Source: Hydrolagus affinis (Eukaryota). From it: 64,000 bases of DNA. The notes under the pieces were generated by a model that saw only the letters and a program-made list of their open reading frames with translations, was not told the origin of the DNA and did no database searches. Below are positions 22,096-44,858 of this stretch, piece after piece. The position numbers were made by a program, and so were the translations under genes. The first letter of the stretch is position 1; every line of letters starts with the position of its first letter. The stretch spans positions 124,001 to 188,000 of the forward strand of contig JAAILG010000011.1 in assembly GCA_012026655.1 (NCBI GenBank). The letters are read 5' to 3'.

Positions 22096-23150
22096 TTGCT
22101 TTCCCTTACAATGAACTCCCTGCCAGTGAATCCAATCTCATTGCCTCATTTTCAGCAATTCACAATTTGGAATAATTTACTGCAGCATACTGATGGCTTT
22201 GCAAAATGCATAATACATTGTAATATATTTTTCATTACAAAGAACCAACAAAGAAATTGCTACTTTAAGTGATTGGCGCATGATCGACCTTCCATTCCCC
22301 ACCACCCCCCACCCCACCATCCTTCATTTACCAGTTCAATTCAAAGCTGTTGGAGGAATGAAAGGTGACTGGTTGGGCCTGTTTGAGTTAAAACAGTTCT
22401 GTGAGGACCTGACCTAAGCCTCACTGTTGTACCTTATGAATCACTGTACAATAGGTACACTACCTTTTACACAACCATAGAAAATCTCAGTACAAGTATT
22501 AGATATGATAAGGCGTTATATCAAATGCAAGGATTATTATTATGATAGTGTGAATGTAATGAATCAAAATTTACAACGCAGAAGGCCATGTGTCCAACAT
22601 GTTTAGCTAGCTAGACTAGCTCTTCCGCTAGAGGTATTTACTCTAATCCCATTCCCCTGCTCTCTTCCCTGTTGGAAGAGATGCAGTCAAATACAATTTT
22701 GTGTTTTAAAAGTATTTTAAAGAAATTCCCCTTTTAGGCAAACATCATGTTTTTGCCCCCTTGATAACTTTTTTTTCTATCATCAATGAATGCACTTAAA
22801 ATACTAGTTATAAAAATATTTTGCTGTTCTCCACTCTCTTTTGGCTGTAAGGATAGACAGAAAATGTACTTACAGATGATGCCTATAAAGTAAAATATGC
22901 GCATTTATTAGTGTCATATTGATGTCTTAAATGCCTCCCAATAATTACTGTTAAGTGTAATGGTGGTAGATCGAGAGAAGCCCTTGAAGGTATTGCGATA
23001 TCAGAAACTTGCAGCTGGGCAAATCGAAAGGCTGAACTTACTTCCTGACGGTTTGTGTTTTGAACGTGGGTGATTGACTTGCTGCCTTTGAATGACATCA
23101 AAACCAAAATCCCAACTGAAACACATACAGTATTGTAATTTCCACAGTAC

Positions 23151-23353
23151 CTTAAAGAGGATATATAGGATGTACACAAATATTCCGAATCCGTAAATAG
23201 GGATGATCTGGCCCATAATGTTTTTATTGCCTCCTCCAACAGCTTTGGCTTTGACCACAGCTTCTGCATTGTTGAACTGGGAAGGGGCTGACCTGCTGGA
23301 TTTGATGTCAGAAGCTTTTGGACGCATCATGGGAGGAAATCGATTGGGGTTAG
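23151..23353 (-). CDS. RIC3: RIC3 coding exon 2 (RFPPMM motif and TM helix)
   Basis: ttttgcag| acceptor; NPNRFPPMMR...AEAVVKAK...MGQIIPIYGFGIFVYILYILFK; donor |gtactg; 203 nt, phase 1 to 0. Confidence 0.95.
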
Positions 23354-23724
23354 CTGCAAAACATAATAGACGAGAATCGTTTAAACATTTGCTACCCATG
23401 AATGGTACATTTTTAATCTTCATCAAAGTACAATTTGAGATTAAATCAATGTTTTTTTGCCAGCCTGCCTTCAGTTGCATTTTGATATCACCCTTTCTGT
23501 CTGCGTAATAAATTGCTTTGTGTTGAATTGGGAATATAGAGGTGTTGGTATTCTGGAAGGATGAGCCCAATTAGGTCCAATATAATGCCCCCAGCATCAA
23601 TTACCTGAGAGTGGCAAGTTATAGAGGAGGGATCAAAGTTCGGACTATCCTGATCTGTATCACGCAATATAATGCATTTATCCACTGAGTGATCAGGAGC
23701 AGCCAAACTGTTGCTCATTTGACA

Positions 23725-24065
23725 ATAGTCCTTGCATTTTGGTATAGCACCTAATCACATCAGAGGGATGTCTCAAAGCGCTTCACAGGATTTACTGTGA
23801 AATCGAGTGACTCTATATTTGTAGGCGAACACAGTATCCAAAGCAATGCCCCACAAATAGCCATGAAACGAATGACCATTTTATTTGGGGGATTGTTGGC
23901 CAGAATGTTTGGGAGATACTCCCTTCCCGAATAGTGCTACGGGATCTTTAACATCCACCTGAACAGGCAGATGGGACCTCAGTGTCACGTCTCATTCGAA
24001 GTGTAACATCTCACCCCCAGCATTGCATTGAAGTGTCGGCTTAGACTATGTGAGTTCAAGTCCCG
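23725..24065 (-). mobile_element. Deu-domain SINE
   Basis: aatagtgctacgggatctttaacatccacctgaacaggcaga (Deu domain, reverse) plus the SINE tail. Confidence 0.7.
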
Positions 24066-26649
24066 ATATGCAAACAAATATAACCATTATGTACAAAGCG
24101 TAAAAAGAGAAATATGTCTGCCACAAATAGAAATTTAAAACTTCATCTTTTACCCATTTTGTTGTCGTCGGGATCAAAGGACCCTCATCTTAATTTTTGT
24201 TGAGCCTCCGCTTATACTGTCTTCAGTTGCTAGGCTACCATTTGTATAAATAACTATTGCGAATGTTAATCTACTGTCTACTCTTTCATTACCAGATGTG
24301 AAGGTATTATAAAATGTCACTCAGTATTCATAGAATTAATCTGCATAAGCACCCAAGAGAGCAGTATTTTAAATAATGTAAATTGCATCTGATAAGTTTT
24401 CTGGCGTTTTGCTTATCAGCTGTGAATAGGTTAATCATTCTGTACAATTGGCTACATCTCTGCCAACTCTGCCCATCACTTGGGTATAACCTTTCTTATG
24501 GCTGTTAAAATAGACAATAATTCTACGGTGAAATTCATTCTATTATGCATAAATAAGTAATTGGAAACTATTGGTTAGCTGAAAGCCAATATCGAAAGTC
24601 AACAGAACTGTTTTTAAAATGTAATATTTCAAGGAGCTTTGTGTGCTTCAATACTTCTAGTTACAATATCAAGCTAATTTTGTAAATTTTGATTGATCCA
24701 AACTAAGATCTCTCTACACTCTAATTATTTGAAGATTTATCCAGAATAGCATTACCTGCACTGAACTTCAATTTAACACCTTCAGTTTTACAGTGCTTAA
24801 TGCACCATATCCAAAATTACTGCAGTCATTTTCCTTTATCTTGCTTACCTGAAATACTTTTTAAATCAAGGCTTACTCTAGATCTTAACTCTGTGCTCTG
24901 CACTTATTTTCCTTAATACAGTACTATTATTGGAGAGAAATACATAAAGAGCAAAGCTTCAAAAGAAGGCTTTGATGCATGTAGAGGTGAAGATGCTAGC
25001 CTGACTTCACTGGTGGTACTCTCTGGATTAAAATATTGTGGATTCAGGTCCACATTGGGGACTTTAGTGAGCACATTGATCGAGGCTAGCACCAATGCAG
25101 TTTGTGGACAGCACTACATTGATGAAGATGCCATCCTTCATATCAATTCTGCCAAGCCCAGGGCCATCTGCCACATTTGGCCAGTTTTGCTTTTCAGATG
25201 TGGCTAGTTCCACTCTGATGAATCAATTTGCGTTTCAACTTGTGGGATTGAAATGGATCTTCTGTCGCTTCTATCACATCAAAACATCTAAAAACTAGAA
25301 TATATATGGCCACTGGGTTGGACAGCACTGCTTTGGATGAGAAGTGAAACCGAGGTCTTATCTGTTTATTTAAGTGGATGTTAAAGAATCCACGGCACTT
25401 AATAACTATAATAATGAGATAATAAGAATCCTCGCATTTGATATGGTGCTTTTCATGTCTTCTAGACATACAATCATGGAATCATAGAATTTTATGGCAC
25501 AAAAGGAGGCCATTTGGCCCATCTAGTCTGTGTCGGCTCTTTGAAAAGAGCAACTCAATCCCACTGCCCAGCTCTCTCCCCATAACCTGACAGACCTGTT
25601 CTCCCTAAACATCTCAAAGCGCTTCACAGAATATACCGTAAAATGAATTGCTTGTATATTTTTATGGGTGAAACTTTCCAAAAAGAGAAGGGAGTTCTCC
25701 TGATGTCCTCATCAATAATGCTCGTTTAATTTGTCATCGACCTGGCCGTTTGAGGGATACTGCTGTTCACAAATTGGTTGCTGTATTTTTCCTACTAATA
25801 GTCACTACACTAAAACTTGAAATTCATTCTATTATGTATATCTGAGTAATTGGAAACCTAGTGGTTAGCTGTAAGCCAACTGAGGACTTGACAGGAAACT
25901 AATTGCCTTGAAACACTTAGATACTGTATTTCAATCTGATCAAGTAGTGTAGCGAGGATTATTATTGAAGGATTCAGTGAGCCATGTTTCGCATCTCACT
26001 CTCTTGATAGATACTGTTCATTGTAGCAATAATGTTTTTGGTGGCAGTGAAATCTAACCCTGTAGCAGTAAAGAATTTTTAAACAAGTTATCCCTCTGGG
26101 AAGCATGTGCACTCTATATTTTGGAATTCTCAAATCTAGTAGTTTGGATACTCTTAAGCATACAGATGGGTTTCCATATGAATTTGAAATCTGGCCAAAT
26201 AAACAATTTACAAAGTCAAAGCACACAGGTAAATACGATTTTAAAGGGTTCACTATATTATCTTAGTGACATCTACTGACATACCAATAATGTGTTGTAC
26301 TTTTGCATTAACTGGTTGCTAAATTTAAAAATGTTTCATGCTGTCTGATCGCTAACTGGAATATTGGCTCTCGCTCCATTGGATACAGTTTTATACATGT
26401 TGCTAGAACAAATAAGCAGTCTACTGTTGCCTGTTGAAACAAATTAGTACATCAGAATACAGGACACTAATATGAAATGATTATTAGCATAATCAAATGT
26501 TAGGTGGAACTATTCGTCCCTTACTGAAGTTTACCCATAATTGTTTCTAGTGTCTGCTGCAATAAACACCTACATTTCCCAGATTATTATTATTATAATG
26601 AAAGAAAATGAGGATACCCATGGAGAAAGTCACCAATTATATTTGGGGG

Positions 26650-26856
26650 AAACTCTGTTCTCTTTTCGAATAGTGTCATGGGATCTGAACAGGTAGACAT
26701 TTAACGTCTCACCCGAACGAAGGCACCTCCGACATTACGAAACAACCCCAGCATTGCATTGAAGAATCAATTTAGACCATAAGTCCCAACATGGGACACA
26801 AAACTGCAAACTTCTGACTCAGAGACAAGAGTGCTATCACTTCGCCAAGCTGACAC
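26650..26856 (-). mobile_element. Deu-domain SINE
   Basis: aatagtgtcatgggatct...ttaacgtctcacccgaacgaaggcacctccgaca. Confidence 0.7.
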
Positions 26857-29544
26857 ATTAACTTAATAATGCCAAGAATTGTCAAATGTGATAATGCAGA
26901 GATGGGATGTTGGAAGTAAAGAATACTCATTCAATATTTCTATCTTTTGTTCAGAGAATACACAGCAAATGAAAATGTTTTCCATTTTAATGTTCCTGTG
27001 AAAGAATTTTTTTTTGCTAGTTCAAACATCAGACAGAATATATTTTTATTTGGCTCATAATCTGATGATATATGCCCTGTCACAGCAACTCTATACTACA
27101 TTTAATAGTCTGACTTACAAACTTCAAACTGGATTCATTTTCTGACTGGTTAATTTTATGACTTTGTAAGTGGCAACAGAAGCCCTGAATTACCACCATA
27201 AATTCTTACTTTAAGATTGACCAAATTGGAAAACCATTTGCGGATGTTGCATAATGGACAACGTATATTCCCATCCACGTTTTCAAAGCTTGACCCTTGG
27301 CACCTAAATGCTCAATCGTATAAATGGAAAGATTAAAAAATGCGAAAATGAATGAGAAATGTTCTTACTTTCAAACCTTTATTAAAAAAAAGTTCCTCCT
27401 CTTACTGTGTACCGTTGACTGTTATGTATGTATGCAAGCAAAGCAAAATTTCTGATATCACCAGGTACATCCCACAAATTACAAGGAAATGCATAGTCAC
27501 ATTTTTAAAAAAAACATTCACCAGAAAGAATCTCAGCTTAAGACCATTACCTCTGACAATGCAGACTCCCTCACATCTGTACTGGGTGTCAGCCTAGAGG
27601 TCGAGCTTGGCTTGATCTAGCATGTTGCTCAAACCTATATGCATTGACACTGCAGTACAATAGTGGGGAGAGTGTTGCATTGCTGCAGATGCAGCCTTTT
27701 CGACAAGATGTTCAACTGATTTAAGTCAAGCTAATGGCTATTCAATAGTTTCTAATGTTTGTTTTCCTGCAATAAACTTGATTTTATTTTCCCTGAATTA
27801 CTTGGTTGAGTAATTCAGGCTGAGTATGAGCATCACTGAAACTTTCCTTGTCCAGTTGGGAGCTGCTCCACCAGCGGCTGACAACATAAATTCGAAAACT
27901 TGCCCACACACTTTAGTGCAGTAGAAAATATTTAATTTGGCTAGTTATCTGACATTTTGTGTTGACAATCCCACATTAATGTTTTGAATTCAGAGCGACC
28001 GACCCCCCACCACCCAACCACCAGTGTGCGATTCGATCTGTCAGTGAATGCAATAGCTTCTCCCATTCTCGAGTTCCACAAGCTAATTAAACCCTTGGCT
28101 TCCACTTTGTGCTCAAAGGAGCTCTGCTCACTCGTCTTCCACACATTGCCCAAGCAGGAGCCTGTCAAACCAATCAGTGCAGTCAAAGAAATCTGAACCA
28201 CCACAGAAAGCATTGCTTTGGGTTGGACTCGTTTCAAAAATCAACAGAAAAATTGTAATTGTGTTGCAGTTTTCATTTTGTGGCAGAAGCATTGCCGCAG
28301 CCTTCAAAGGTTAAAGGGAGACTGAGCTGCAGTCGGCGAATGTTTGACATTTTTGATGGTTTTTAAATTACTTTATTCAACCTACCAAATGAAATACTCC
28401 ATTGTAGATATTACCCATTTATCAAAATCGGACTGCACACAAAAATCCCTATACGATTTCATTTAGATACAGGTTTATATTTAACACAGAGTAAAGCCAT
28501 ACTGTACAATAGTTTGATAGATCAGATTTGTAGCAGCAGGACTCACAACATTCGCCTACAATAGAGCTCTACGCCTCCTAATCTCTCGCCGGGCCGGGTG
28601 TATTTCGAGTTAACCTGATCTAGAGTCCAAACTGAAAGTTCCAAAATTGCATTTTTCTTATAATTTTCTTTAAGATCAAGTTTGTTGGCTTATGCATCCT
28701 GGCTAAATCAAGGTTTTATTTTTGTCCAACTAAACAGTTTTTCCATTGCCTGTAGATGGGGGGAAAAATCCTACCTTCTATTTGGCTTTTGGTTCTGTTT
28801 ATGGCTCGACTGCACTTAACTATAGATAAATTTGATTTAAACCCTTGAGTTCCTATTTTGGGGAAGGAAGCTGTGTTTTGTGCCATGGAACGGTCTGTGT
28901 CTGGGAGGAATGAGTAGGCTGAATGACCTTCTCCTGTTCCTAAATTCCTCACTGGAGCTATAGATGATAATAACTTCTTGACCTATGTGCAACCATTGGC
29001 CAATGGATGCTTTTCAATCTGACCAGACTATGATAAATGTTTTATCAAAATTGGAGGGTTACAAGTACAACATGGACTATTATGATAGCATAGTAACATA
29101 AATGGTATGGTTAGTTATTCTGAGGGGCAAGCACACTGATAAAATAAAATGCCTAGTTCTGCTCCCAACCCTTTTTAAAGCCGAGTATTACTGAATTCAG
29201 TAATGTGTCTGATCACGAATAGGCTGTGGGTACAAATCATTTAGATCAATACACTGATGGTCCAAATTAGATTTTCTTGAGGGATTGTGGTAAACATCAC
29301 ATTGTACAAACATTGTAAACATGGTTTTATTTGAATGCAGAAGAAAACTTGTGTAAATATCAGCATAGTACTATTAGCATTAGTACAAGGCCTAGATGAT
29401 TTCAAGAGTACATTTGAAACCATTTTATTAAATCAATGGTGTTCTCAAAATATGTGGTTGTGGATTTGAGTCAAATCCAGTTACTTGTATTATGTAAAAT
29501 TTAACAATAGAACTCTAGGTGAGAAACTTGTAATGTGATTTAAA

Positions 29545-29810
29545 GTTTCAGATGAAAGGTTATCCATCTGAAACATTTACTCACTTGCATCTCTCCATAG
29601 ATGTTGCCTGGCACGCTGAGTGTTCCCAGCAACTTCTGTTTTTATTTCAGATTTCTAGCATCTGCAGTATTTTGCCTCCTGTTATTGGCAGTAACTGCTT
29701 GGATAAGGATTACAAAAAAAATTTGGGTGTAATTTAATGACTAAATCAAACCCTGAATAAACATTAGTCAAAAACGCAAAATATTGCAGATGCTGGAAAT
29801 CTGAAAAACC
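29545..29810. mobile_element. Penelope-like terminal-repeat remnants in inverted arrangement
   Basis: tttcagatttctagcatctgcagtattttgc (29645) is inverted to gcaaaatattgcagatgctggaaatctgaaa (29776); hammerhead-like core at 29549-29575. Confidence 0.5.
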
Positions 29811-30929
29811 GCAAATCACATTAACTTGTAGTCCTTTGCTAAGTAGTAATTTTCTTTTCAAAAAATATTTGGGGTTGCCTTTGTTAGCATTACAGTTGCA
29901 TATGAGCATATATAATATACATGTAGAAGAGTTTTAAATTAAAGAGATACCATGAAATAAAGCCATGTGTGTGTATTTTATATACAGCATACATTACAGA
30001 AGGTCTACTCGGTTACTGGGCTTAAGTGACTTGGCTGTCAATTTGCAGTTTCCCATGTGAATGTAGTACACTAAGTACCAGATCAATCACTGGCTTATCA
30101 GATGGGTTTGTCTCCTCTCTCCTCCTTGAAGGTGCTGAATTCCTGACATGTCCATGTGACCTTCACATGTGAGTTGATAGGCTTTTCCATTGATTGTGGA
30201 GCATGATCCCTGCCCACAATTCTCAATTTGTCCAAATCAGTCCTTTGCTTTCTAGCTGGGGTCATCCGATAACATAACCTTCCCCTACTCCCTCAAGGGA
30301 ATGAAATGTAAATTGTAATGCTCTTAACGCAATTTAATATACCGGCTGTAACATTGAAACATCTAAGTGTTTGAGAGCATCTTTCTGTATAGAAGCATGA
30401 CCTTATTTGTAGGCAAAGTGGTCGATTTTATACAGGGAAATGATCCTTCAACCTCCTGGCTCAATTCGCACAAGTTGAGACACTTACCAATTGAGCTATG
30501 GGGAGCTCTCCATTGCTAATGTTTACTGGGTTCGTTTCAGTCCAACTCAATAGCATGTACTTACCACTGTGTCTGGATAAATTAATTTCCAAATTAACTA
30601 CTCTTGCGAAGTTATTTTTGAAATGTTACATTAATTAAGATAAAGTTGCTTACAAAACACTCAAAATTAAGTTGGATTCAGCAAATGAGCCTCATGAGAA
30701 GTCGTCATGTCTCCTCATCAAGGACATTACTATTATTATTTCTAGTTCAGCAGTTGTTTTTGACACAAAGTGGTTTATCCTCGAATCTGCTTTCTAGTGC
30801 CATCAGTACAACATTCACATGCGCCCCCGCCCCCTACCCCCACCCCAGCACGATTGTGGACAGAAAAGTTTGGGCACAAGGGGAAATGGGCTTCATTCCA
30901 CTTGGGAGGCCTTGCTATTGTGATTGCCC

Positions 30930-31325
30930 GAGTGTCTCTGTGTGTCTACTCTCTACACGTGTCTCTATGTGAGTACATGTTTATTGATTGACTGTCACTC
31001 TCTGGGTTTGTGTCTCTCTCCTGTGTACGTGTTTGTGAGTGTCCTGTGTCTTTCTCCTCTTATGCATGTGTTTGTAAGTGTGTCCGTGTGTGTCGCTCGC
31101 TAGGTGTCTTTCTTCGCTGTGTGCGTTTGTGAGTGTCTGTAAGTGTGTCTCTGTCCTCAGTATGTGTCTGGTTGTGAGTGTCTGTATGAGTGTGACTCGC
31201 TCTCCTCTGTATGCATGTTTGTAAGTGTGTCCATGTGCGTCTCTTCTGTCTGTGAATTTGAGTGTCTCTGTGTGAATGCTTCTGTGTCTCTTTCCTCTGG
31301 ATGTGTATGTCTGTCTGTGTGCAGT
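30930..31325. repeat. Degenerate (TG)/(TC) low-complexity tract
   Basis: ~400 bp of tgtg/tctc microsatellite-like sequence. Confidence 0.85.
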
Positions 31326-32342
31326 GTTGGGTCCTGAAAGGGAGTGAGCAATTCTAGCCCCTCAATCAAAACACTGGTCCTAAGTGTTTTTTGGCAGATC
31401 TCCAGGTTGCACTGGTATCCTCTCCATCCCCAATGGGCCACCCAGTTTTTGTTTTTAAAAAAAGAAATTAATAAATGTTTTCTAACAATCTAATAGGTGG
31501 TATTTCCTCATGTTTAGTGTGTACCAATAAAGCGAAAACATGTAGGTTGGCAGTAAAACATACCTCAATAGCACCAACCAACCCAATGCGATTTTTCAGC
31601 AAAATTCCCCATGACTTGGGAGGCAAATTTACATACTTTTCTATTGGCCCAGCCCGTTATTAACATAGCATTGCCAACTCCTTATCCCATGAATAGTTCG
31701 GGTTCAACCCAATGGGTTCATACAATCATGAAAATGCAAGTACTGGAAACGGGAATGAAGGGGAATAAATAAGGATAAAAATGAAAACAAAACAATATGA
31801 TACAAATAAACTTTATTGGGGAACGACTTGTGAATTTGATCAGGAAGAAATAAATGAGCGGTTTAAGAAGCAGGTATTTCAATGCGGCCAACTGAAGAGT
31901 AAACTAAATGCAAGGGTAAGAAGAAGAGTAATGAATGAAAGGAATGCTGAAAGGGAGACGAAAGCAAAAGGTACAAGAAATAAAGTGAAGGCTTTAGATT
32001 TCACCCACAAAATATACCGTCAATTCGCTTTGCAGTACATTCTGCGAAGCGCGTTGAGACGTCCCAAAGACATGATGATGTTAGATCAAATGCAAGGATC
32101 CTTATATCAATGCAAGTATTATTATATCCAATGCATGAATTACGATTATATCAAATGCAAGGATTATTATGATTAATATTTAGAATAGAAAATTAAATGT
32201 TTGGAGCAGGAAGATAACGCAAGGCAGGTTTATAAATGAATGTTTTTTTTCTTTGGAAGGGGTGGGTGGAGCGAGAGAGAAAGCAGAAGCCGCACCTCGC
32301 TTTATTTAAAGATTTGTATATAAATCCCTTCCCATTCCTTAC

Positions 32343-32457
32343 CCTCCTTCGGATCGCCCCCCTTCCCTCGGACCAGGAAGAGTTTAGGAAAGACGACGGA
32401 GCAACAGAGGACGACACAGGAGACCAGGGCCACCTTTTGGAAAGCGGAGAGAGTCAT
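32343..32457 (-). CDS. RIC3: RIC3 acetylcholine receptor chaperone, coding exon 1 (signal/TM segment)
   Basis: gaggccATG; MTLSAFQKVALVSCVVLCCSVVFPKLFLVRGKGGDPKE; donor G|gtaagg; 115 nt, phase 1. Confidence 0.9.
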
Positions 32458-32499
32458 GGCCTCAGTGGCTCGGGCAGCGGGAGCTCGGCCTCTCCTTTC

Positions 32500-33000
32500 T
32501 TCCACTAAAACCATCAACTCAAGCCCCCCCACCCCGGCCGGGGAGAGAGGGGAGAGGGGAGGTGGGAGTTTAACGAGGAAACGAGAGAAGAGCCTAAAGT
32601 CAAGGCCCGGATGGGAACGGCCTCCTTAGCAACCGGGAGAGGAGGCGGGGTGGGGGGGGGGGGGAGAACCAGACCGGAAATAAACCCCGCAATACGTTTG
32701 TAGCCCAATGTTCGAGCCCAAAGTAGCCCAATGTTATTATAATCATGATAATTATTATTTTTAGGGCAGCAGCCTTTTTTAAAAAAAACAACAACAAAGG
32801 GAACGGCGAGTGCTTTTTTAATATATAATATATGTAACAAATAGTGCGAGTAAAGGTTGTTTAAAAAAAATCGCGAGGCGCCCGCCCAAACCCGCCCAAT
32901 TGGGGGCGTGAACCCTGGACACGTGGTGATGGACCGGACCGGAAGCAGCTCCCCTCCCCCCCCCACCCCGCCCACCCCCCACCTCTCTCTCTCTCTCGGC
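32500..33000. promoter_or_regulatory. CpG-rich bidirectional promoter (RIC3 on minus, snoRNA host gene on plus)
   Basis: Local GC/CpG enrichment; GC boxes 32881-32887 and 32891-32897, CCAAT 32896-32900, E-box CACGTG 32920-32925, ETS CCGGAA 32674 and 32939, TCGCGA 32871, YY1-like CGCCAT at 33000. Confidence 0.75.
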
Positions 33001-36000
33001 GCCATTGGAAGCAGCAGCAGCTCCTCCAGGAGCTTTGCCTGAGGTAACTTTATATTGATGTTATATATCCAGTTAAACATTATATATATGTGTGTGTTGT
33101 GTCCTGTCTTTTATATATTGTATATATATAGTTAAGAGTTAAAGCTTTAGGTTATTTGATATGTGTTGTGTCATGTATTTTATACATTATATATATAGAT
33201 AGATAATATATATAGATATATAATAAAGATACAAAGCTTCAGGTTACTTTATATGTTATACAGTCAAGAGATCCCACCTGAGGTTATGTTTATATTTTTA
33301 ATGATTAATTATTTCACACGTGATGTAGTCCCTAAGACCAAACCGAAGGTTTATTCTATATATTATTGCAGGGAGAGCGAGAGAGAGAAATCAAGCCGGA
33401 GGTTACTTTATTTTACTGATATTATAGCTTTCCAGACTTGAGAGACCAAACCCTGCGTCATTTACATAATGTAATTTAGTCACAAGTTTACTTCTTATGG
33501 AGTCTCGGGGAAACCACACTTGGAAGTTAGTGACAGTCACCAAGCATGTAATAACGCAATCATTGCCTTTTTGTAGGGGTTGGGGTGGGGATTTTAAAAT
33601 AAATTGGTTAGAGTTTAACAATAAGAGTCTTAATCCTTGCATTCGATTCGAAGTTCCTTTTTGTCTCGAGCCTGAGCTGGTTCTTAGTTATTGGGAGTTA
33701 GTTATAAGACCCGGCTTGTGCTATTTAAATAGTTATAAAAGTTTGATTCTCTGACCCTTTTCCTCCACCGTCGGCGGTTGAGTGATGTTGGAAGTTTCTG
33801 GAAGATCTTGTTGCATGTAGATTTTTATATCTTTCATCAACAACAAAAAAAAAGCCACTATCACTGGTTACCCGCAGCTCATTTTAAACCTTTCACTTTG
33901 AGCCCTCGGGCTGATCTTTTTATAATAATGATTATTGTTATTTCCCCTCCCTCTCCCTCATTTGATCTTTCGGCCTAATAAGTTCTGAAACTCACTGACT
34001 TTCTCCCCCGTTCAGCACAGGCAGAACCACGTGGAGACAAGGCAGTCAGACAGACCTCATGGATCGAGCAGTTTCACAGAAGATGGCGCTGCTGGAATGG
34101 GTATGGACTAGAGAGAGACAAACAGACACGTGTTGGGGAAAATGAGAACTTAAAAACGAGAATAACTGGACAATTGAGCAGCTTTAGTTAATATATATAT
34201 TTTATTATAGATATATACACATGCATAATATATATTTTAAAAGGGTTACTGGGTTAACAATCGTGAAGCTGTTCTCGTGTATGTGTGTTTCTGTTGGTAG
34301 TTTTATCAGTATTACTTGAGCTGAAATGTACAATGCCTCCATGGACCACATCTAATGCTTTTTAATTTGCATTTTAAACCATAAAAATATACCTACTTAT
34401 GCAGAGGAAGGAGCTAACTCATTTTACCTTGATGGGGCAGCACAAGCTTATTTTAATACCAGTCTTGTGTCTTTACAAGTGTGTCAGCTAATGAGAACAT
34501 TGTTTGATAATGATCGATGGGCAGCTTCAATACAATTGCAGCGGCATACTTACAATGTACAACTGCAGTGCTCTTTAAAAGAAGTGTTTTAAACCAGGAA
34601 AGTTTCATTTTACAGAACAATAGCAATACCAAAGGCTAAACTCGTCATTCTTATTTCCTGCAGAATTGCTTTTTGGCCACCAAGGTCAAAGAACAATGGA
34701 GACTAGATAGAGGCTTGCTGAATGGTGTGAAGGTAAGTGTCTTTGAACCGAAAAGGGATAAAATTGAGAGAAGCAAGAATTTTTGCTGCCCACCCTCCAT
34801 TGCAAACACACACACACACACACCCCTTCAACATTCAGGTAGATTAGGAATCTTATTTTAAAATTATGGAATGTTGCTTTGCGGAACTGACTTCCGGATT
34901 TCAGCCATAAAATAGTTATTTCACTTTATAGTAAATCCCATGAAGCGCTTTGAGGCATCTCAACAGTGACCTAAGATGCTTTATCAAATGAAAGGATTAT
35001 TATGTAAAATGAAGTAGAGCTCTGGCCTATACTTGGGTGTTATCCGACATGAATAACCTGGAGTAGAAGGTAGCTTCACTGTGGCCATGTATATTTACCA
35101 ATGCCACTCACAAATGTTCAAGCAGCTGTTGCGTCCTGTATTTTATACATACATATTTATAAAATATATATAGTCAAGAGGCAAAGCTTCAGTAAGCCCG
35201 GTATTAATAAATTGTCTGGAGTTCGGTTAGCATTATGTGTCCCATCGTCAGGAGAGACTGCATTTCAAACAGGAATTTCCATGTGCAGGTGTCATGCATG
35301 AAACTGGTTTGAAAGTTCTCGTGCTTAGTTTGTTTCCACGTGTATCAGACACCTGGCTGATCACTACAAAATAGGTTGTTCTTAATGGTCAGGAATTCAA
35401 TTGGTTACTGTAGGAAAATTATCTTGCACAAACGTTTTTTTGAATTGCATTGCTGCAATAGTCTTAACTCTTATTTTGTGATGTCCTTGCATTTATTGAT
35501 TTTGGATCTTTGGGACATCACAAGTTGTGGTTAGTTACTCCCTATTCATCTATAGTTCCATGAGTTCTGTTCTGCGAGACATCCTTTGGAGTCCATGTTT
35601 CATTTATGAGTGATTTAATATTGATCAGGATTTGGCTATGGGATTCATTGAAAACCAAGCCTAATCTTTTTGTGGATTTCCATTTCAGATTACAATCAGA
35701 GATTGTTTTCTTTCCCGATTGCTAGCCTGGGATATTGGAATCAGGTGAAGTGCTCTTATTGTCACCCTGACAGATTGGCAACATTTGCCCCTTCCTTGTC
35801 TTTATTGCTCAATCAATCATTGGATAAGATTAGAGAGCTTGATCTTTTGATGTTTGGCTTCTTACTTTTGAAACATCAAACTGCAGTTTTCTTTTTGGTG
35901 GTGACTGAAGCCAAACTGCTGGAATCCAATGCCAAATAATTACATTGCCATGTCGTCGTTAAATGACCATGTGGTTAGCAATCAGCAAAACACTTAAAAA

Positions 36001-37044
36001 TGGTGTGTTTAGACACAATGGTTCATTGAACCTTTGGCTTCTTAGCCCAGTTTCTCGAGAGGGATGAGTTTCAGGTTCAGTATTATTGCAGCTCCTTCAA
36101 TGTTGTTTGAGGGAAGATTGTGTGTAGGTGACCTACTACATCGTACTACAACAACACGATTACATTTGTAGAACGCCTTTCACGTTGAGAGGACGTCCCA
36201 ACATAGTAGTTGCAATGTTCGAAGTTTTTTTTTCTGAAGTGCAATTGGACACATCTGGTAGCCAAGCCAAGAGGGACATGCTCCTGGTTCATTGTTTAGG
36301 TAGGTAATGGGGTTAATTGTTTGCTAGCAGGCATCCACTAATGGCATTTCTTGATTAGTTAACCTCGATAAGCCTGGAAACCACATAAGATATTAATCAA
36401 ACCCTTAGCGTGAAAACCTGTTCTGGCGTGCATGCAACATGACATAAGTTCATATTGAGTGCTTGACAGCTCTCAAGAATCATTGTTGATCCTTTATCCT
36501 TCAAACGCTCATTTCTCCAGTTTAGCTGAGTAAGGCAGTACAAGAAGTTTCATTGTATGCCTTTGGCTGATTATATTGTAGATTTCAGTAATTTTTTTGG
36601 TAGCATTGCGTATATCAAGGTCACTTCTAGTGCTGCTAAATGGAGTCTTTGGATGATTTTACACTAAATTTGTACCAACAATGGTAGTGTTCAGCTGTAA
36701 TAACCGATGAAATCTCTTTCTGGAGAAATTAAGCAGTTTTTTTCATTAGAATTAGTTTGATTCTAAATAGTTTGATTTCAGTTCGAAGGTAACCGAAATG
36801 GTAGGATAATCAGCTCACTATTTCACTTTTTTTTAAGAAAATGCTTTGAAAAAGCAGGTAAAACACTTGCTGTATCTATTGGATTGATGGAACTGCTGGA
36901 ATCCATTTAAAAATCTAGCAGTCTATTGGTTTATTCAGTTACAAAATAACTATGTTAGTTATACAAAAATAACATGTGTTATTCCTTTTTTCTAAAATAC
37001 ACTAGACAAATGCCAAGTTTATTGTAACAAAATATATGCCTGGT

Positions 37045-37136
37045 TAACTGGTGATAGAAAGTTTCTCCTTACATTTATCCCTCATTTAGGAACGATAGAA
37101 CAATTTAAAATCATAATGAAAACATTCTGATTATTT
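37045..37136 (+). ncRNA. Candidate box C/D snoRNA of unrecognised family (copy A) with 18S-complementary D guide
   Basis: C-like GTGATAG 37051; TAATGAAAACATT immediately before D box CTGA 37127-37130, complementary to 18S AAUGUUUUCAUUA; 81 nt upstream of the acceptor at 37211. Confidence 0.5.
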
Positions 37137-37458
37137 CATACAATATTAGATGATGTAATCCAATATCCTTAACCTAAAAAGATATTTAAATTTGGCTTTC
37201 CCCTTTTTTAGGCTGAGCTACAAAGCTGAACACTGAAATGTAGTGCCTCTGCTGTTGGTTGTCCTCATTTCTGCAGAAAGGCTTGGATGCCTATTTCTGG
37301 TATGTATGAGAAGCTTGATATATGTTAAGCGCTCTTGAGACGCCGCCCCACGTGAAGGGCGCGATATAAATGCAAGTTGTTGTACATTAAAAATGCACTA
37401 CTAGTGTACATTGTAAGTGTAACAAAATTACATTTATAGAGTGCTTTCATTGAGAATC

Positions 37459-37543
37459 TCCAGAGTTACAAATGATGTTCTCACGATGGTCTTCATAGTA
37501 AATGTGATGAAATTTCTGTATGATATTAGCTGATAGCTCTGGA
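37459..37543 (+). ncRNA. SNORD35: Box C/D snoRNA, SNORD35 (U35) family, copy 1
   Basis: Terminal stem TCCAGAGTTA/TAGCTCTGGA; box C ATGATGT 37472; guide TCTCACGATGGTCT complementary to 28S AGACCGUCGUGAGA; D' CATA 37494; C' GTGATGA 37504; D CTGA 37530; 81 nt upstream of the acceptor at 37614. Confidence 0.9.
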
Positions 37544-38214
37544 TTATTTTGTTGATTCAAAGTAGAAATGCGGGGAATGTGTTACAAGGTAACTCATCAG
37601 ATTGTTTTTCACAGCTGAAAATGAAGGTGTTCCAAGGCAATATTTCTGGATCCATGGATCTTTAGCAATGCTAAGCAGTCTGTTCAGGTATGCATGAGGA
37701 CTAATTATTCTTGTGGGTTCCCTGAATGTTAAACTATCTCGGTGACTTGGTTTCAATACATGTTAGCTTTACTGACACTAGCATCAGTGAAGGGACTTGT
37801 GTACCTTGCTTTCCTAGAGAAATTAAAAATCTCAAGCCTTCGCTTCCAGAAAGTGAAAGTGTGGCTCCTCTCAGCTAAATCAGTAACGCATTTGTAAAGA
37901 TTTACTGCTTTATTATAAATGAACTAAAAAGAGTGACAGTTGGAAATAAAATTTGCAACTAGTCTTATTAATTGTGATTCTAGAACACGCGTTTTTTAGT
38001 TTAACACTTGTATTTATAACTTTACTTTTTTTTATCCTGTTTAACGTACACTTTTTCAAATGGTTAGTTCATTTGCAGCAAGATATATGGTTCGTTGTTT
38101 AAAGAATCAAATGTATTTTGTAGAATAGTTGCATGGCAGATTTGCTTCATTTTTACACGTGGGAATGGTTATTGTAACTGCGTTGATGAAGCTGCCCAAT
38201 GGCAACATCTGGTT

Positions 38215-38313
38215 AAATAACTGGTAATAGAAAGTTTCCTCTTACATTTATCCCTCGTTTAAAGCACCTGGTTAGAATAATTTAAAATTCTAATGAAAAC
38301 ATTCTGATTATTT
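38215..38313 (+). pseudogene. Paralogous copy B of the candidate C/D snoRNA (box C mutated)
   Basis: GTAATAG at 38224; guide and CTGA intact at 38291-38307; AAATAA/TTATTT flanks. Confidence 0.4.
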
Positions 38314-38389
38314 CATACCACTTTAGACTTTAATAATGCTGTACTTGTGCTTTTAAGTGCACATTAAATTGTTGTATTCATTGAGATTC

Positions 38390-38474
38390 TCCAGAGTTAC
38401 AAATGATGTTCTCACGATGGTCTTCATAATAAATTTGATGAAATTTCTACATGAAATTAGCTGATGGCTCTGGA
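38390..38474 (+). ncRNA. SNORD35: SNORD35 family copy 2
   Basis: Same stem, boxes and intact guide TCTCACGATGGTCT; C' is TTGATGA; D CTGA 38461. Confidence 0.88.
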
Positions 38475-38637
38475 TTATTTTGTTGCTTCCAAGTAGAAAT
38501 GGAGGAGACTTGTTACAAGGAAACTGATCAAATTGTCTGGTTTCTAGCTAGTTTTTTCACAAATGAAGATAAGTGCTCCCTGGCAATTTTGAATTCATGG
38601 ATCTTCAGCGATGCAGTCTGTTCAGGTGGGCGTGAAG

Positions 38638-39178
38638 TAGTGTCCGTCGATATTGAATTTTTCTGGTATCAATATATCGGTGGGCTCATATTGATATCAC
38701 CAGGTTTTTTTTACTCGTGTTCCAAACCTTTACATATGAATGGCTTGGGAGGGTTGTGTGCAAATCTGATTGTGTTTGGTAGTGGGGGGAAGGGAAGAAG
38801 GGGAATGTGTGTGCATTCAGGGATGCGCGCGCATTCAGATATGTGCTCTACGCCCAGGAGGTTTGCAATGCCGGCGACAAGGTCTGTTGAACTTTCTTGT
38901 TACTGTTTTTGTTGTTTGTTGTTGTTGATGGAGCCCTTTGGCGCTTTAAGAAAATTAAGCTCTTGTATGCGTTGTGTCGTCAAGTACATTTGAACCTTTG
39001 GTTGTATATTTGCTGTATGCTGTAACGTGGCATATGTTGATGATATACTGATATTTCGTGGATATACCGATTTTTTTTCATACCGAACTTTTTTGATATA
39101 CGATATATTCACATTACCAATATTGGGATATCAATATGAAAAATTATACCAATATAATCGATATATCGCCGGACACTA
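38638..39178. mobile_element. Non-autonomous hAT-superfamily DNA transposon (541 bp)
   Basis: TIRs TAGTGTCCGTCGATAT / ATATCGCCGGACACTA (15/16); perfect 8-bp TSD GCGTGAAG (38630-38637, 39179-39186); subterminal GATAT/ATATC repeats; absent from paralogous units. Confidence 0.9.
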
Positions 39179-39281
39179 GCGTGAAGGCTACTTGTGGATT
39201 CCCTGGGTGTTAAATTATCTGGGTGACCTGGTATCGTTATATGTAAGCTTTCCTGAGCCCTAGTATCAGTAAAGGGATATA

Positions 39282-39622
39282 CAGTAAAAGCCTGTTTATC
39301 CAACACCCTCTGGGGGGGGTCGACTAATTGATTGTCGGATAATCGGGCGGCAAGTTGCCGAAAACCTAACACAAAAAAATTACTTATTTTAAAACATACC
39401 ATATTAATAATATACTAAATAGTAACAATATGGTATGGATACTTACCAATAAAGATTCAAGCACACTTGGTAAAACACAATTCTTTTACCGTTCTGCTAA
39501 AAAACCATAGTTCGTAAGTTTAATAAGTGCGCAGAGTGAGCATACTCGCGATTGCTGAAATGGGAAATTGCTCCGGGTATGCAATCCGGTTGATCGGGTC
39601 ACGGATAAACAGACCTTTACTG
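39282..39622. mobile_element. Tc1/mariner (Tigger/pogo-like) MITE (341 bp)
   Basis: TIRs CAGTAAAAGCCTGTTTATCC / GGATAAACAGACCTTTACTG (18/20); TA on both sides. Confidence 0.85.
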
Positions 39623-40041
39623 TATGTACTTTGCTTACCTATCAGTAGTTCCCTCCTACATTTACCCCTCATTTAAACACTTTGTTTGATTGAAATAAAT
39701 TGGATTGAAATATTTTGTTTATTTAATTCTACATTGGATGGTGTGATGCAATATCCTAAACTAAAAATGTATTTACATTTGACTTTTGTCATTTCCTTTT
39801 TTTTAGGCTGAGCTACAAAGCAGATACTGAAATGCAGTGTCCCATTGCAGATTGTCTCCATTTCTTCAGAAAGGCTTGGATACTTGTTCTCCAGGTATGT
39901 AAGAGAAACTATGTGTTAAGTGTTCCAAGACACTGCCCTGTGTGAAGTACACAATATAAAAAGCAAGTTGCTTTCGATTTTAATGATGTTAAATAAAGGT
40001 GCTTATAAGTGCACATTAGATCACTGCATTCATTGAGATTC

Positions 40042-40126
40042 TCCAGAGTTACAAATGATGTTCTCACGATGGTCTTCATAGTAAATGTGATGAAATTTCT
40101 ATATGACATTAGCTGATGGCTCTGGA
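40042..40126 (+). ncRNA. SNORD35: SNORD35 family copy 3
   Basis: Intact stem, C, D', C' and D boxes and guide. Confidence 0.88.
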
Positions 40127-40674
40127 CTGACTTTTATTGATTCAGAATAGAAATGAAGGAGACTTATTGTAAGGTAACTCATCAAATTGTTTTTGTTTTC
40201 AGACAGTTTTTCTAAGCTGAAGAGGATATTTCTGAATCCATGGGTCTTCGGGAATGCTAAGCAGTTTGCTCCGGTAAGCATGGGGGCTACTTAATCTTGT
40301 GGTTTTGCCGAGTATTAAATCGTCTGCGTGATCTGGTTTCAGTGCATGTAGAGTTTACTGACCCAGGCGTCAATAAAGGGACTTGCTTTCCTACCAGTGA
40401 GAAATGCAAGCTCTCTCTCTCTCGCCTGCGCTTTCACAAAGTGAGATAAGTGGGTTGACACTTGCATAATAACTCTTAATACCCTTTTTGATTCTTTTTA
40501 AAGCACGCTTTTTCAAATGCCTAGTCAGTTTGCGACAAGATAAATGGTTAGGTTCATTGATTAGAGAATCAAATGTATTTTCATAGATGAGTTGCATGGC
40601 AGTTTTATTTCATTATTATTTGTGGAAATGGTTTTTATAACTGCTTTGAAGCTGCCCAATGGTAACTTCTGGTT

Positions 40675-40773
40675 AAATAACTGGTGATAGAAAGTTTCCT
40701 CTTACATTTACTCGTTGCTTAAAACACCTGGTTAGATTAATTTTAAATTCTGATGGGAGCATTCCTATTATTT
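40675..40773 (+). pseudogene. Paralogous copy C of the candidate C/D snoRNA (box D lost)
   Basis: GTGATAG 40684; guide TGATGGGAGCATT followed by CCTA instead of CTGA. Confidence 0.35.
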
Positions 40774-40849
40774 CATACCACATTAGACTTAAATAATGCT
40801 GTACTCATGCTTTTAAGTGCACATTAGATTGCTGCATTCATTGAGATTC

Positions 40850-40934
40850 TCCAGAGTTACAAATGATGTTCTCATGATGGTCTTCATAATAAATGTGATG
40901 AAATTTCTATATGAAATTAGCTGATGGCTCTGGA
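40850..40934 (+). ncRNA. SNORD35: SNORD35 family copy 4
   Basis: Intact boxes and stem; guide TCTCATGATGGTCT (C>T, becomes a G-U pair). Confidence 0.85.
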
Positions 40935-41996
40935 TTGTTTTGTTGCTTCAAAGTAGAAATGGAAGAGACTTGTTGCAAGGTAACTGATCAAATTGTTTTT
41001 ATTTCTGCTAGTTTTTTTTACAGCTGAAGATAAGTGATCCATAGCAATTCTGAATCTGCAAAATGCTAAGTCTTCAGGAATGCTAAGCAACTTGTTCAGG
41101 TGGGCGTGAAGGCTTAATCTTGTGGTTGTCCTGAGTATTGACCTGTCTGGATGACCTGGTTTCATTGCATGCAAATTTTACTGACCGTTATATTGATGAT
41201 GATCAGGAGTGGGTATACATACTTGTTTACCTATCAGTAGGGAAAATACAAGCTATCACACATCTGTGCTTCCACAAACTGAAAGAGTGGCTCCCTCTCT
41301 GTCAGCTACGGCAGTGACATATTTGTAAAGATACATTGTTTTATTGTAGATTAACTAAAACGAAGGACTTTTGGAAATAAAAATCGGTAATTAATCTTCT
41401 GTTATTTATCATTTCAAATTGTAGTACCCAATTCAGTAGTTTAATATTAGTTTCTTCTGCAAAATATACAGTCGTTTCACCTTATAGTGTCTACTATGAA
41501 GCTGTTTGAGACATCTCGAAAATGTGTGATAAGGCGCGATATCAATGCAACAAGTAGTATTACACAATGGCCCTATAATATATTTTTGTTCATTTTATAA
41601 AGTACAATTTTCAAGTGCTTAGTTCATATGTAGATCGTGGTTGGAAGCCACACAAGCAAAACATCTGGGTTTGATTCCCACCAGGGCAAAAGGTTGGGCG
41701 AGTTTCCTTTCTCCACACTCCTCTGTTGACCTGGCAGTAAGTGGAAACCTGGTTGTTAGTTGATTGGTAGATTGTGTTTCTGGGGATAATAGTTCCTTAA
41801 CAGAAAATCGGTCACTTCAAACCACAGCTTTCAATGAAATAGCTAATGCAATTGGTTGTTATTTTTCACCTACAAAATATACTGTCAATTCATTTTACAG
41901 TTTATTCTGTATAGTTCTTTGAGGCACGTCGAAAACAAAATAAGCTGTTATATAAGATGCAGGGATCATTATTATTTGTGACAAAATATGAGACAA

Positions 41997-42079
41997 TCCA
42001 GAGTTACAAATGATGTTCACATGATGGTCTTCATAATACATGTGATGAAATTGTTATTACGTTGACTGATGGCTCTGGA
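41997..42079 (+). ncRNA. SNORD35: SNORD35 family copy 5 (most diverged)
   Basis: Intact boxes and stem; guide TCACATGATGGTCT with one mismatch and one extra wobble; 3' half diverged. Confidence 0.8.
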
Positions 42080-43059
42080 TTATTTTATTGATTCAAAGTA
42101 GGAATGAAGGAGTCTTGTTGCAAGCTAACTGATCAAATTATTTTTCACAGCTGAAGATGAAAGTGCTCCATGGTAATATTTCTGAATCCACGGGTCTTCA
42201 GGAATGCTAAACAGGTGGGCATGAGGGCTACTTATTCTTGTAGTTTCCTCGAATGTAAAACTGTCTGGGTGACCTGGTTTCAGTACATGTAAACTTTGCT
42301 GACTCTCAGATCCCTAGTGCTTAAATGACTTGCTTCTTCTAGTTTATTTGTAATTTATTTGGTCTTCAAAACTGTAGCCTTTGGGGGGAATACTACTATT
42401 CTCCCAGAGCTGCTGGCTCTGTTTAATTCTGGCCAAAATAATTTTGCACTTTATAATTTCTCATTAGTTAGGAAAAATAATGCAATTTGTCCCTGAACTT
42501 GGCTATCATCTACAAACATACTTTCCAGTAATTGGGAATAGTGGCTGTTTTTTTTTTCCTCTTTTCCCTTCTGCCTCATTCTGTCTCAGTCCATTTGAGT
42601 TTAGACCAATAATAGCAAAAAGTTCAGTTTGGCGTTTATTTAAAACATTTGGTGCGTCGTATGTTGCCAGTTCTCGATTTAACATTCCAACTAAGAATGA
42701 TAAATGAGTCAATTTCCCCTCATCTGTAACCTTTCTTCTCTTCTAGACAACAACTTTGAAGAGGGATTCAATACAGGGACAAAATGAATTCACAGCCGTC
42801 GTCTTTCAGTACTTCACCTTACTGGGTCATCCAATCATTAAAATGCCTGGGATGCATTTTGATGCATTTGGGTTTGTGAACTCTTGCTGGTTTTTGTACA
42901 GCTAGTTCGCTAGTGCTGTAGTTTCACAGCTGAGTCCAGTTGACTGCCTTATGTGTGATAGCGAAGAATAGTCTTTGTGATTGACTTCAGTTTGTGCACA
43001 AAATCATTTCTGGCTCCTATTGAACTAAATGAGGCCATAATTAAAATAAATTTCACTGA

Positions 43060-43340
43060 GCAGTGCATATTGGGGGGTTTCTTGGTTTGTCTCTGAGCTG
43101 GTTTGGCTGGAGCCAGTAAGAGAGCTATGATTGTCCTTGGTGCCTTTGGGCTTCAGAGAGGAAATTAATCAGAATTTCTACTCTTGATTGCTTTTCAGTG
43201 GGTGCTGCTGGAAACTGCATTTCTGGACATTGAGCAAGGCCAATTGGTCTTAATTGTCATTCTCCTGGGGCCAAATAGCCTGTTGACACTGCCTGAAACA
43301 TGAGGAATGGGTTACGAAAGAGTGTTGTTACTTGTGGAAT
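43060..43340 (+). repeat. Old interspersed repeat (SINE-like), with a related reverse copy at ~30080-30290
   Basis: tcagtgggtgctgctggaaa...aatagcctgttgacac resembles the reverse complement of 30170-30270 (gttgataggcttttcc...tttctagctggggtca). Confidence 0.4.
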
Positions 43341-44202
43341 TGTGTCCCTAGGTGAACTTGGACTTGTGCATGTTTCGAAGGGAAGTAGAGGATATTTTCA
43401 TTGTACCATCTTTATATAAGCAAGATTCTGAAGGGGGGTTGTTGAACCCTTATTTTACCTCAAACACTTTGATTACTTTTAGACTTAGTGTTAAGTTCTG
43501 AGTAGAAAATTCTAATGGACACAAATCACTTTTTGAGTATTTCATATGGTTTACATTGTGAGTTTCTGGCAATTATTCAAGCAGCTATTGACTGGTTTCT
43601 TAAACTGCCTCTAATTGTGGCCCCATTTGTATTACTGAAAACACAAGAAAACTTAAGTCACTATGACATTTACAAATTACTGCAATAACCAAATGTCGTA
43701 TTTTCTCTTGGGGACAGCAAAGATTACTTAAGTAACAAGAAAATTGCTGTTTAAATCTTGAATGGCTGTTGGTAGGTACAACATGAAAGCCAATCTAGCT
43801 GAAACGTTCATCTATTGTGTCCCAGCGGGTTTAGTCCAGATTATTGCATGTTAATATCATTAACCATGTAATGTATGTTAGCACTGCAAGTGCCAAAGAG
43901 CACAATTATATTGCGGTCTCGCTTGAACGGTTGGATATAATAGTACAGATTATAAACACTTTAGAAATACCCATGTTTTACTTGTATATGTTAATCTAAC
44001 TTAAAATTGTATTTCTAGCTGGGTGAGAACTGGGTTTGGAGGTTGAATTGTTGTTTATTAAACATGATTTTCTTAAACTCACTGGGTGCTGAATTGTGTA
44101 ATTTTAGGGATATATGGTGGACGTGAGATGCATTGCACTATCTCTGGTTGAAAGCTATTTTAGTTTTTAACAAGCTTTTTTAAACACATGCTACTTACTA
44201 TA

Positions 44203-44858
44203 TAGTCCACCTTTGCCGAACGCGACTTTCTCGACTGCGGATTTGCCTATACGCAAAGAAATAAATTAGGCAGTTTTTTGCGTAACGCGAGTAAAATTTG
44301 TGTATATACGCGCTGGCTGGCCCCGTGCGCATGTGCATTTGGGAGGACGCCGGCCCCGCGCGCAGTGCATACTTGGGAGGACGCTGGCAGCTCCCGACTA
44401 AGTCCGATGATTCCTCAGCTGGCTGGACTTGCGCATATGCGCATTTGGGAGGACGCCAGCCTCCACGTGTAATGTACACTTGGGAGGACGCCGCCAGTTC
44501 CTGCCTAAGTCCGATGATTCATCGGTGCAACCTGCTAAACAGAAGAGAGAGAGTCTCTTAAAACTTCCAGGGTAAAATCATTTAGCCAAGCTGTGGTAGT
44601 GTAAGGTGCTGTTTTATTGTCTAGCGAGTTGGGGAGCGTGATGAACGGGCCAGCCAGCTGTAAGTTGCCTCAGTACGTACCTTGCATTGGTCGGATGTGG
44701 ATGTGCCTGGAGGCTTGAGGTTGGATAGCCTGTAGATGGATTCCTCTCACCCCTTTTTTTCCATTACAATACAATACTTATTAAGCTTACCGAACATGAT
44801 TTTACTGAGTGCGTTGTTCTACAGGAACGTAACTGCTGCGTTCGGCAAGGGTCTACTG
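44203..44858. mobile_element. Tigger/pogo-like non-autonomous element with internal GC-rich repeats
   Basis: Imperfect TIRs TAGTCCACCTTTGCCGAACGC / GCGTTCGGCAAGGGTCTACTG; TA flanks; four TTGGGAGGACGC units at 44339-44490. Confidence 0.75.

Follow-up and report, generated by a model that had tools for sequence, protein, structure and literature searches.

The stretch of DNA analyzed here, called the window below, comprises 64,000 nucleotides (nt) of Hydrolagus affinis (GenBank assembly GCA_012026655.1, contig JAAILG010000011.1, positions 124,001 to 188,000, forward strand), and positions are counted from its first letter. Its plus strand carries five tandem box C/D small nucleolar RNA (snoRNA) units that resemble SNORD35. 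The units lie in the introns of a spliced poly(A) host, apparently non-coding (34026..44075, plus strand), which stands head-to-head with RIC3; the other neighbor is the end of a Tub-family gene, and these neighbors together with CpG depletion point to a vertebrate genome. We consider it very likely that the five copies are working, redundant SNORD35-family guides produced by ordinary intron processing of this host, with a copy number that drifts.

A 22-nt pattern spanning box C and the guide, searched with up to three mismatches, matched the window five times, always on the plus strand (37473, 38404, 40056, 40864, and 42011), while none of 100 shuffled windows reached five matches and the largest shuffle count was 0. 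When copy 1 was used as a DNA query against the whole 1.11-Gb assembly, every one of its five matches fell at the RIC3-side locus, as did all five matches of a 3′ flank query. The units measure 85 nt in copies 1 to 4 and 83 nt in copy 5, and each runs in the same order: a 10-nt stem arm, CAA, box C (AUGAUGU), a 14-nt guide, U, box D′ (CAUA), a spacer, box C′, a variable stretch, box D (CUGA), and a second 10-nt stem arm.

Splice joints were taken from three poly(A) runs of one RNA sample, aligned at 98% likeness. Copy 1 (37459..37543) sits in the intron 37300-37614, with its joint in 5/0/3 reads and 29.1 bits against the Rfam SNORD35 model (RF00211); its stem pairs 37459-68 with 37534-43, and its box C lies at 37472-78, guide at 37479-92, D′ (CATA) at 37494-97, C′ at 37504-10, and box D at 37530-33. 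Copy 2 (38390..38474, intron 37688-38547, joint in 2/4/3 reads) also scores 29.1 bits. Copy 3 (40042..40126, 29.9 bits) probably occupies an intron from 39895 to 40202, 40206, or 40216; RNA reads cover both flanking exons (rows 39884 and 40232), and no joint is listed there at the threshold of three reads. Copy 4 (40850..40934, 25.8 bits), whose guide carries a C-to-U change giving a second G-U pair, lies in an intron of about 40274-41011, with its joint in 0/1/5 reads and placed as AA..AG, 2 nt off the GT donor at 40274. Copy 5 (41997..42079, 22.1 bits) is the most diverged, with one mismatch and two G-U pairs in its guide duplex, and its intron 41100-42150 has its joint in 6/15/5 reads.

The first-pass annotation of this DNA had described five tandem units closed by a 10-bp terminal stem, and beside the pattern matches the stem itself bears this out: all 50 cells of the 10 pairs are paired across the five copies, with nine pairs constant and one showing a one-sided change from G-U to A-U. 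Its claim of conserved boxes concerns C, C′, and D, and it stands. Boxes C (as in the SNORD35 consensus) and D are identical in all five copies and C′ reads GUGAUGA in four (UUGAUGA in copy 2), but D′ is degenerate in every copy, since CAUA differs from CUGA at two of four positions and from the Rfam CAGA at one, and it was placed by alignment. Folding z-scores for copies 1 to 5 were -3.6, -1.8, -4.1, -2.8, and -1.9, and copies 1 to 4 are mutually 93-96% alike across the whole 85 nt.

SNORD35 was the top Rfam family for each copy (22.1-29.9 bits, E 0.0011-0.21 with 6.5 kb searched), although all five scores lie under the gathering cut-off of 36 bits, so that the proposed check against the Rfam model succeeded for the family and failed for the threshold. 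The family claim itself gains from the near likeness of the units to the genome's own SNORD35, which reaches 47.3 bits and lies in the second intron seen in RPS11 (host confirmed). It is the one threshold-passing SNORD35 found in the genome; because the search behind this count scored 59 of 20153 candidates and did not pick up copy 5, the genome-wide count is a floor. Box C, the greater part of the guide, and portions of the two stem arms are common to the RPS11 copy and the window copies; 52 of 97 alignment columns are invariant, and blastn connects the RPS11 copy to all five. It is 8 nt longer between D′ and C′, and its D′ is likewise degenerate (CCAA). The guide also aligns column for column with the SNORD35 consensus. 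By guide, target, and homology, and against the Rfam-threshold result, the five units are on sequence grounds diverged SNORD35 paralogues.

When the window, its 10-kb flanks, RPL13A, and RPS11 were searched with a custom model built from six copies (the five in the window plus the RPS11 copy), no additional copy scored above 8.9 bits. The other weak hits of the genome-wide search, apart from L010, were re-scanned with Rfam only. A box C followed by a near-guide stretch with one mismatch occurs elsewhere in the genome (L010, G000:C15893, 1501-1597, minus strand; 26 bits against SNORD35); read by eye it has no clear box D or recognizable host, and it may be a decayed copy or a chance match.

In RPL13A we found no SNORD35 by Rfam (E up to 2), by the guide motif with two mismatches, or by the six-copy model. 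Its introns (L046, G000:C29811, 2980-5016, minus strand) hold three SNORD33-family snoRNAs, two of them nearly identical, and one SNORD34. A PF00572 search gave mitochondrial-type L13 exons only, as judged by eye. A 67.6-bit tRNA with a CCA anticodon read by eye (L046 5827-5898, plus strand) precedes RPL13A by about 200 nt on the other strand, and further upstream are exons (7361-7970, minus strand) that we take to resemble those of the ATP synthase inhibitor ATP5IF1.

Seven large-subunit (LSU) rRNA loci of the animal's own assembly carry UUUAGACCGUCGUGAGACAG or a variant differing only 3′ of the paired stretch. Against this 28S sequence the guides of copies 1 to 3 form 14 bp with one G-U and that of copy 4 forms 14 bp with two, while copy 5 pairs over 11 unbroken nt plus a mismatch, with two G-U pairs; the guide change in copies 4 and 5 is one that keeps pairing as G-U. 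Duplex energies fall from -24.7 kcal/mol to -22.9 in copy 4 and -17.5 in copy 5. Beyond the guide variation given in the first-pass annotation, copy 5 carries an extra T-to-A change, which produces its mismatch to the target. In every copy the guide is the longest complement to the three 28S pieces compared, and the RPS11 copy also pairs over 14 nt, with one G-U at a different place.

Counted back from D′, the guide's fifth base lies opposite the first C in AGACCG, the position predicted earlier as the equivalent of human Cm4506. This agrees with the assignment of 28S-Cm4506 to SNORD35A (in RPL13A) and SNORD35B (in RPS11) in PMC8393311. By the structure line, the target site belongs to a short LSU hairpin that has a bulged A. 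We take this hairpin to be helix 93, beside the peptidyl-transferase center. The 28S was located by a 14-nt pattern, and a stricter family search for 28S gave no match. Genome-wide, that pattern had 22 matches against 36 for a control, showing no overall enrichment; the 22 comprise four window copies, the RPS11 copy, eight LSU rRNA sequences recognized by Rfam, one rRNA-like by eye, and eight unrelated sites. Decayed 28S fragments also occur in two ordinary genomic contigs (L029 at 228 bits, L024 by eye only).

Eight splice joints are listed for the host, seven of them GT..AG. The first mate lies on the minus strand at all eight, and reads over the first exon of the minus-strand neighbor RIC3 show the opposite orientation, which places the host on the plus strand. 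The first five listed exons are about 34026-34100, 34664-34732, 37212-37299, 37615-37687, and 38548-38625, followed by 39807-39894, about 40203-40273, 41012-41099, 42151-42214, and 42747 to about 44075; the 5′ limit of the first of these and the 3′ end of the host are estimates. The last exon runs from 42747 to near an ATTAAA at 44057, with 7 molecules starting at 44041. Depth over the exons is low: for every 1.4-1.5 billion letters sequenced, the last exon reaches about 4-12. Against the window, the RNA sample shows 17 listed differences, 12 of them in the last exon, so it comes from a different animal or a close relative. In three versions of the roughly 2.05-kb exon chain, with the first exon excluded, the longest ATG open reading frame (ORF) is 67-68 aa, and there are indels between repeated exons. 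In this one sample the host thus agrees with SNHG/GAS5-type genes in being spliced and polyadenylated, in holding one snoRNA per intron, and in having no conserved coding frame.

Copies 1, 2, 4, and 5 lie in separate read-supported introns of 315, 860, about 736, and 1051 nt, and the intron of copy 3 is the only one placed by deduction. From box D to the 3′ splice site there are 81, 83, 87, and 81 nt in copies 1, 2, 4, and 5 and 86, 90, or 100 nt in copy 3; the corresponding distance in the RPS11 copy is 116 nt. In human, most highly expressed C/D snoRNAs are found no more than 100 nt from the 3′ splice site (PMC8178906), and the window distances of 81-100 nt are in line with this, which supports working copies. 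At two places (38548-38560 and 41012-41023) the acceptor in use is an AG further upstream, at 38547 and 41011 respectively; where units 1 and 5 have their acceptor, unit 2 reads AA and unit 4 retains AG (41023). A short CpG-rich tandem repeat occupies 44270-44520, just beyond the host 3′ end, and a similar stretch is found in L041.

The likely first host exon is 32980..33043 (plus strand), suggested by a pyrimidine run, a GTAACT donor at 33044, and a CpG-rich stretch common to RIC3. The CpG observed/expected ratio is 0.67 at 32300-33050 and 0.45 in the host body. Minus-strand mate coverage in the bin 32701-33101 is thin, and no joint is listed for this exon. A CT run at about 32981-32997 could be a 5′ terminal oligopyrimidine tract; reads are cut at this repeat, and no start was mapped.

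Self-comparison suggests that intron and exon were duplicated together. The stretch 37120-37799 matches 39708-40385 at 73% over 700 nt and 38001-38594 matches 40455-41055 at 84% over 606 nt, so that the block with copies 1 and 2 resembles the block with copies 3 and 4; the unit flanks are 71-85% alike. Contigs of a relative, X1, which differ from the window by 1-2%, join 37427 to 37993 at a depth of 59.5, and X1 depth in the skipped bin is 1.9 against 51-79 in nearby non-repeat bins. The skip takes out copy 1 together with its exon; the introns would still hold one snoRNA each. Loss of copy 1 in X1 is likely on these figures, which come from contigs that drop rare variants and from a library whose type is not on record. 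X1 contigs also skip 35006-35666, 38691-39150, and 39301-39587, with short other letters between the sides; these are probably insertions in the window lineage or deletions in X1.

Copy 5 is directly preceded by a repeat resembling a short interspersed element (SINE) with many genomic matches (41628..41980, plus strand). The stretch 5′ of this repeat, 41526-41627, aligns with the upstream flank of copy 1 (score 55 against a shuffle maximum of 42), partly through an older common repeat tail, and a shorter flank test without that tail was not significant (48-379 of 1000 shuffles). In RPS11, a SINE-like element with an (ATT)n tail (L006, about 1598-1925, minus strand) ends directly at the 5′ stem arm of SNORD35. 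The RPS11 copy and copy 5 are thus each preceded by a same-sense SINE-like repeat, 69% alike over 193 nt running into the snoRNA. A SINE-linked common origin of the two was rejected: the pair is 70-78% alike, no closer than the rest of the repeat family, where 22 hits of 120 nt or more range over 68-80% (median 74%); such tails turn up at 0.32 per kb (51 in 160,369 bases); and the copy 5 element looks later, since its 5′ stretch aligns with the copy 1 upstream flank. An older repeat common to both is possible. Copying of RPS11 flanking DNA was likewise rejected, as 250 nt downstream of the RPS11 copy scored no better than shuffles against all five units (46-185 of 200).

The number of copies raises the question of dosage. 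Five copies might be kept by selection to hold the 28S site fully methylated, for instance to offset a weakly transcribed host; this would be compatible with working guides, and we regard it as possible though unlikely. Boxes and stem are retained in all five copies, host exon depth is low, RPL13A (a SNORD35 host in human) has no SNORD35 here, and snoRNA abundance is reportedly buffered at the family level across human tissues (PMC8178906), all of which would fit. However, X1 skips copy 1, so four copies seem enough there, the duplexes of copies 4 and 5 are weaker, and host transcription can hardly be judged from a low steady-state poly(A) level. The canonical copy, moreover, is housed in an intron of a ribosomal-protein gene, and snoRNAs are most abundant from hosts of this class (PMC13736004). 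The earlier argument that five copies against two human paralogues hints at dosage is weak, given three SNORD35 in Xenopus tropicalis and one in chicken; non-mammalian vertebrates are reported to have more copies than human (PMC6984369).

Selective conservation of the functional parts was assessed in a five-way alignment, with columns treated as independent and without a tree model. Of the 60 gap-free columns that belong to the stem, boxes, or guide, 4 vary, compared with 10 of 23 elsewhere in the RNA and 47 of 111 in the 3′ intron and exon homologous among the units. By Fisher's test the functional columns differ from the flank at p = 4.5e-7 and from the remaining RNA at p = 2.3e-4, in agreement with the earlier claim that divergence is lower inside the unit than outside. 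A first count that used upstream and next-intron flanks (3/60 vs 162/274) was dropped because those flanks hold unrelated insertions, and one base was moved into C′. With copy 5 included, the spacer and pre-D columns do not differ from the flanks (p = 1). For copies 1 to 4 only, the contrast between functional and flanking columns persists (3/60 vs 45/120), whereas the contrast inside the RNA rests on copy 5 and is lost without it (3/60 vs 4/25, p = 0.19); some gene conversion among copies 1 to 4 is therefore possible.

Conversion is also central to a neutral account, by which the tandem repeats are kept alike as passengers or decaying pseudogenes while the RPS11 copy does the work. Sub-threshold Rfam scores, the degenerate D′, the likeness of copies 1 to 4 over their whole length, and the copy skipped in X1 could be read this way, and only about a third of annotated human snoRNAs are expressed (PMC10234308). 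We nevertheless find it very improbable. Spacer and pre-D columns vary like the flanks while the functional columns do not, a pattern unexpected from conversion tracts; the distance from box D to the acceptor stays at 81-87 nt in four read-supported introns that range from 315 to 1051 nt; and the host is transcribed and spliced.

The same alignment bears on a second, non-rRNA target, or a cis role on the expression of the host or RIC3, as proposed for some C/D snoRNAs. The head-to-head arrangement with RIC3 would suit a cis role, and redundancy with the RPS11 copy leaves retention of the cluster unexplained. Yet the place for a second guide, before box D, is the most variable part of the RNA (8 of 17 columns), and the sole conserved antisense element matches 28S, so we give this explanation hardly any weight.

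RIC3 itself (23004..32625, minus strand) was examined in two stretches: Pfam RIC3 matched 23004-23570 with E = 1.5e-16, and the frame at 32305-32625 had no Pfam match. We take the latter to be the first exon of RIC3, from its N-terminus and its opposite-strand RNA coverage. The literature searched, a scope that left bioRxiv supplements and subscription papers outside, showed, among the papers listed, no SNORD35 cluster at RIC3 and nothing on RIC3-DT. The host is a familiar kind of gene, of SNHG type, at an unusual address; what is new is a spliced plus-strand host head-to-head with RIC3. A more speculative extension, which we think improbable, is that a young host gene was born from a divergent RIC3-promoter transcript, captured a SNORD35, and amplified exon plus intron, placing guide supply partly under a neuronal-gene promoter. 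If so, the Cm4506-equivalent mark would be tissue-tuned, and copy number among close relatives would form a natural dosage series.

Our preferred explanation, working but redundant guides in drifting number, would run as follows. The host probably starts at the RIC3 CpG promoter, and one SNORD35 closely related to the RPS11 copy would have entered it by trans-duplication. Tandem duplication of intron-plus-exon units would then have multiplied it, copies 1-2 and 3-4 looking like one larger duplication. Each copy would be under purifying selection as a working yet individually dispensable guide, its number drifting by birth and death. Each snoRNA is likely released by splicing and trimming: the lariat would be debranched and trimmed to the stem, and 15.5K, NOP56, NOP58, and fibrillarin would assemble on C/D and C′/D′. 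Fibrillarin would then methylate the base of the target that lies opposite the guide's fifth base, counted back from D′, and the copies are predicted to guide 2′-O-methylation at the 28S cytidine equivalent to human Cm4506.

Several observations weigh against this explanation. Neither the copies nor anything else in the window reached the Rfam gathering score of 36 bits, and the 10 stem pairs of the five copies include no compensatory changes. The GA that ends both CUGA and the family consensus CAGA is missing from D′, and the +5 register rests on the Rfam alignment. In copies 1 to 4, the non-functional inner columns are also fairly conserved (4/25 vs 45/120 in the flank, p = 0.06). A tree of the five unit flanks supported neither of its two inner branches, and the proposed direction from RPS11 to the host is read from RPS11 serving as a host in chicken and human. 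No mature snoRNA was observed in the RNA reads, which come from poly(A) libraries. Finally, the RNA is a single sample that departs from the window at those 12 listed last-exon places.

Comparison with known systems shows how much of the locus is familiar. SNORD35/U35 (RF00211, clan CL00056; human SNORD35A/B, yeast snR73) is alike in its box C, its D′-side guide, and its 28S target. The window copies differ in their D′ of CAUA, longer outer stem, sub-gathering score, and non-coding host beside RIC3, and from the RPS11 SNORD35 in being 8 nt shorter between D′ and C′. Chicken U35 has a 13-nt D′ guide, RPS11 as host, snR73 as homolog, and one copy (PMC2653536). Xenopus tropicalis snoRD35a/b/c are three SNORD35 with the same target within about 1 kb on one strand (chr3:31,908,928-31,909,957; PMC6984369), in rows that name no host, and zebrafish has three predicted SNORD35 on three chromosomes (PMC11880993). 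The zebrafish FP101887 long non-coding RNA (lncRNA) carries ten intronic SNORDs, nine of them related (PMC7668251), and resembles our locus as a non-coding fish host with tandem same-family C/D snoRNAs in successive introns and a 28S target. Its guests belong to the SNORD52/202 family, have gained or lost a second guide, and have been shown to be expressed, whereas the window copies have one guide and are small RNAs predicted from sequence.

Like GAS5/SNHG-type hosts, ours is polyadenylated and built of short exons, carries no long ORF, keeps its snoRNAs one to an intron, and likely has a pyrimidine-rich start. The host differs from them in that all guests are of one family, exon and intron were duplicated together, and three read-supported end introns and one middle intron are without a copy. 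The processes invoked are also described elsewhere. Duplication in cis, inside a single host, is reported to be the chief source of C/D paralogues (PMC2653536, PMC8178906), trans-duplication of snoRNAs is likewise described (PMC2653536), and host association is less stable than snoRNA sequence across vertebrates (PMC13736004, PMC6984369).

With a guide in the lineage's own lncRNA, none in RPL13A, and one kept in RPS11, the locus offers a clear example of host switching by a snoRNA with tandem amplification, and one in which the copy number of a guide varies between close relatives. All five copies fall under the Rfam cut-off, so standard annotation would miss it. Should the cluster supply little of the guide, it would be an ordinary example of a described process. 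If it supplies a real share, however, the copy-specific bases and the natural difference of four versus five copies could show whether copy number sets rRNA methylation.

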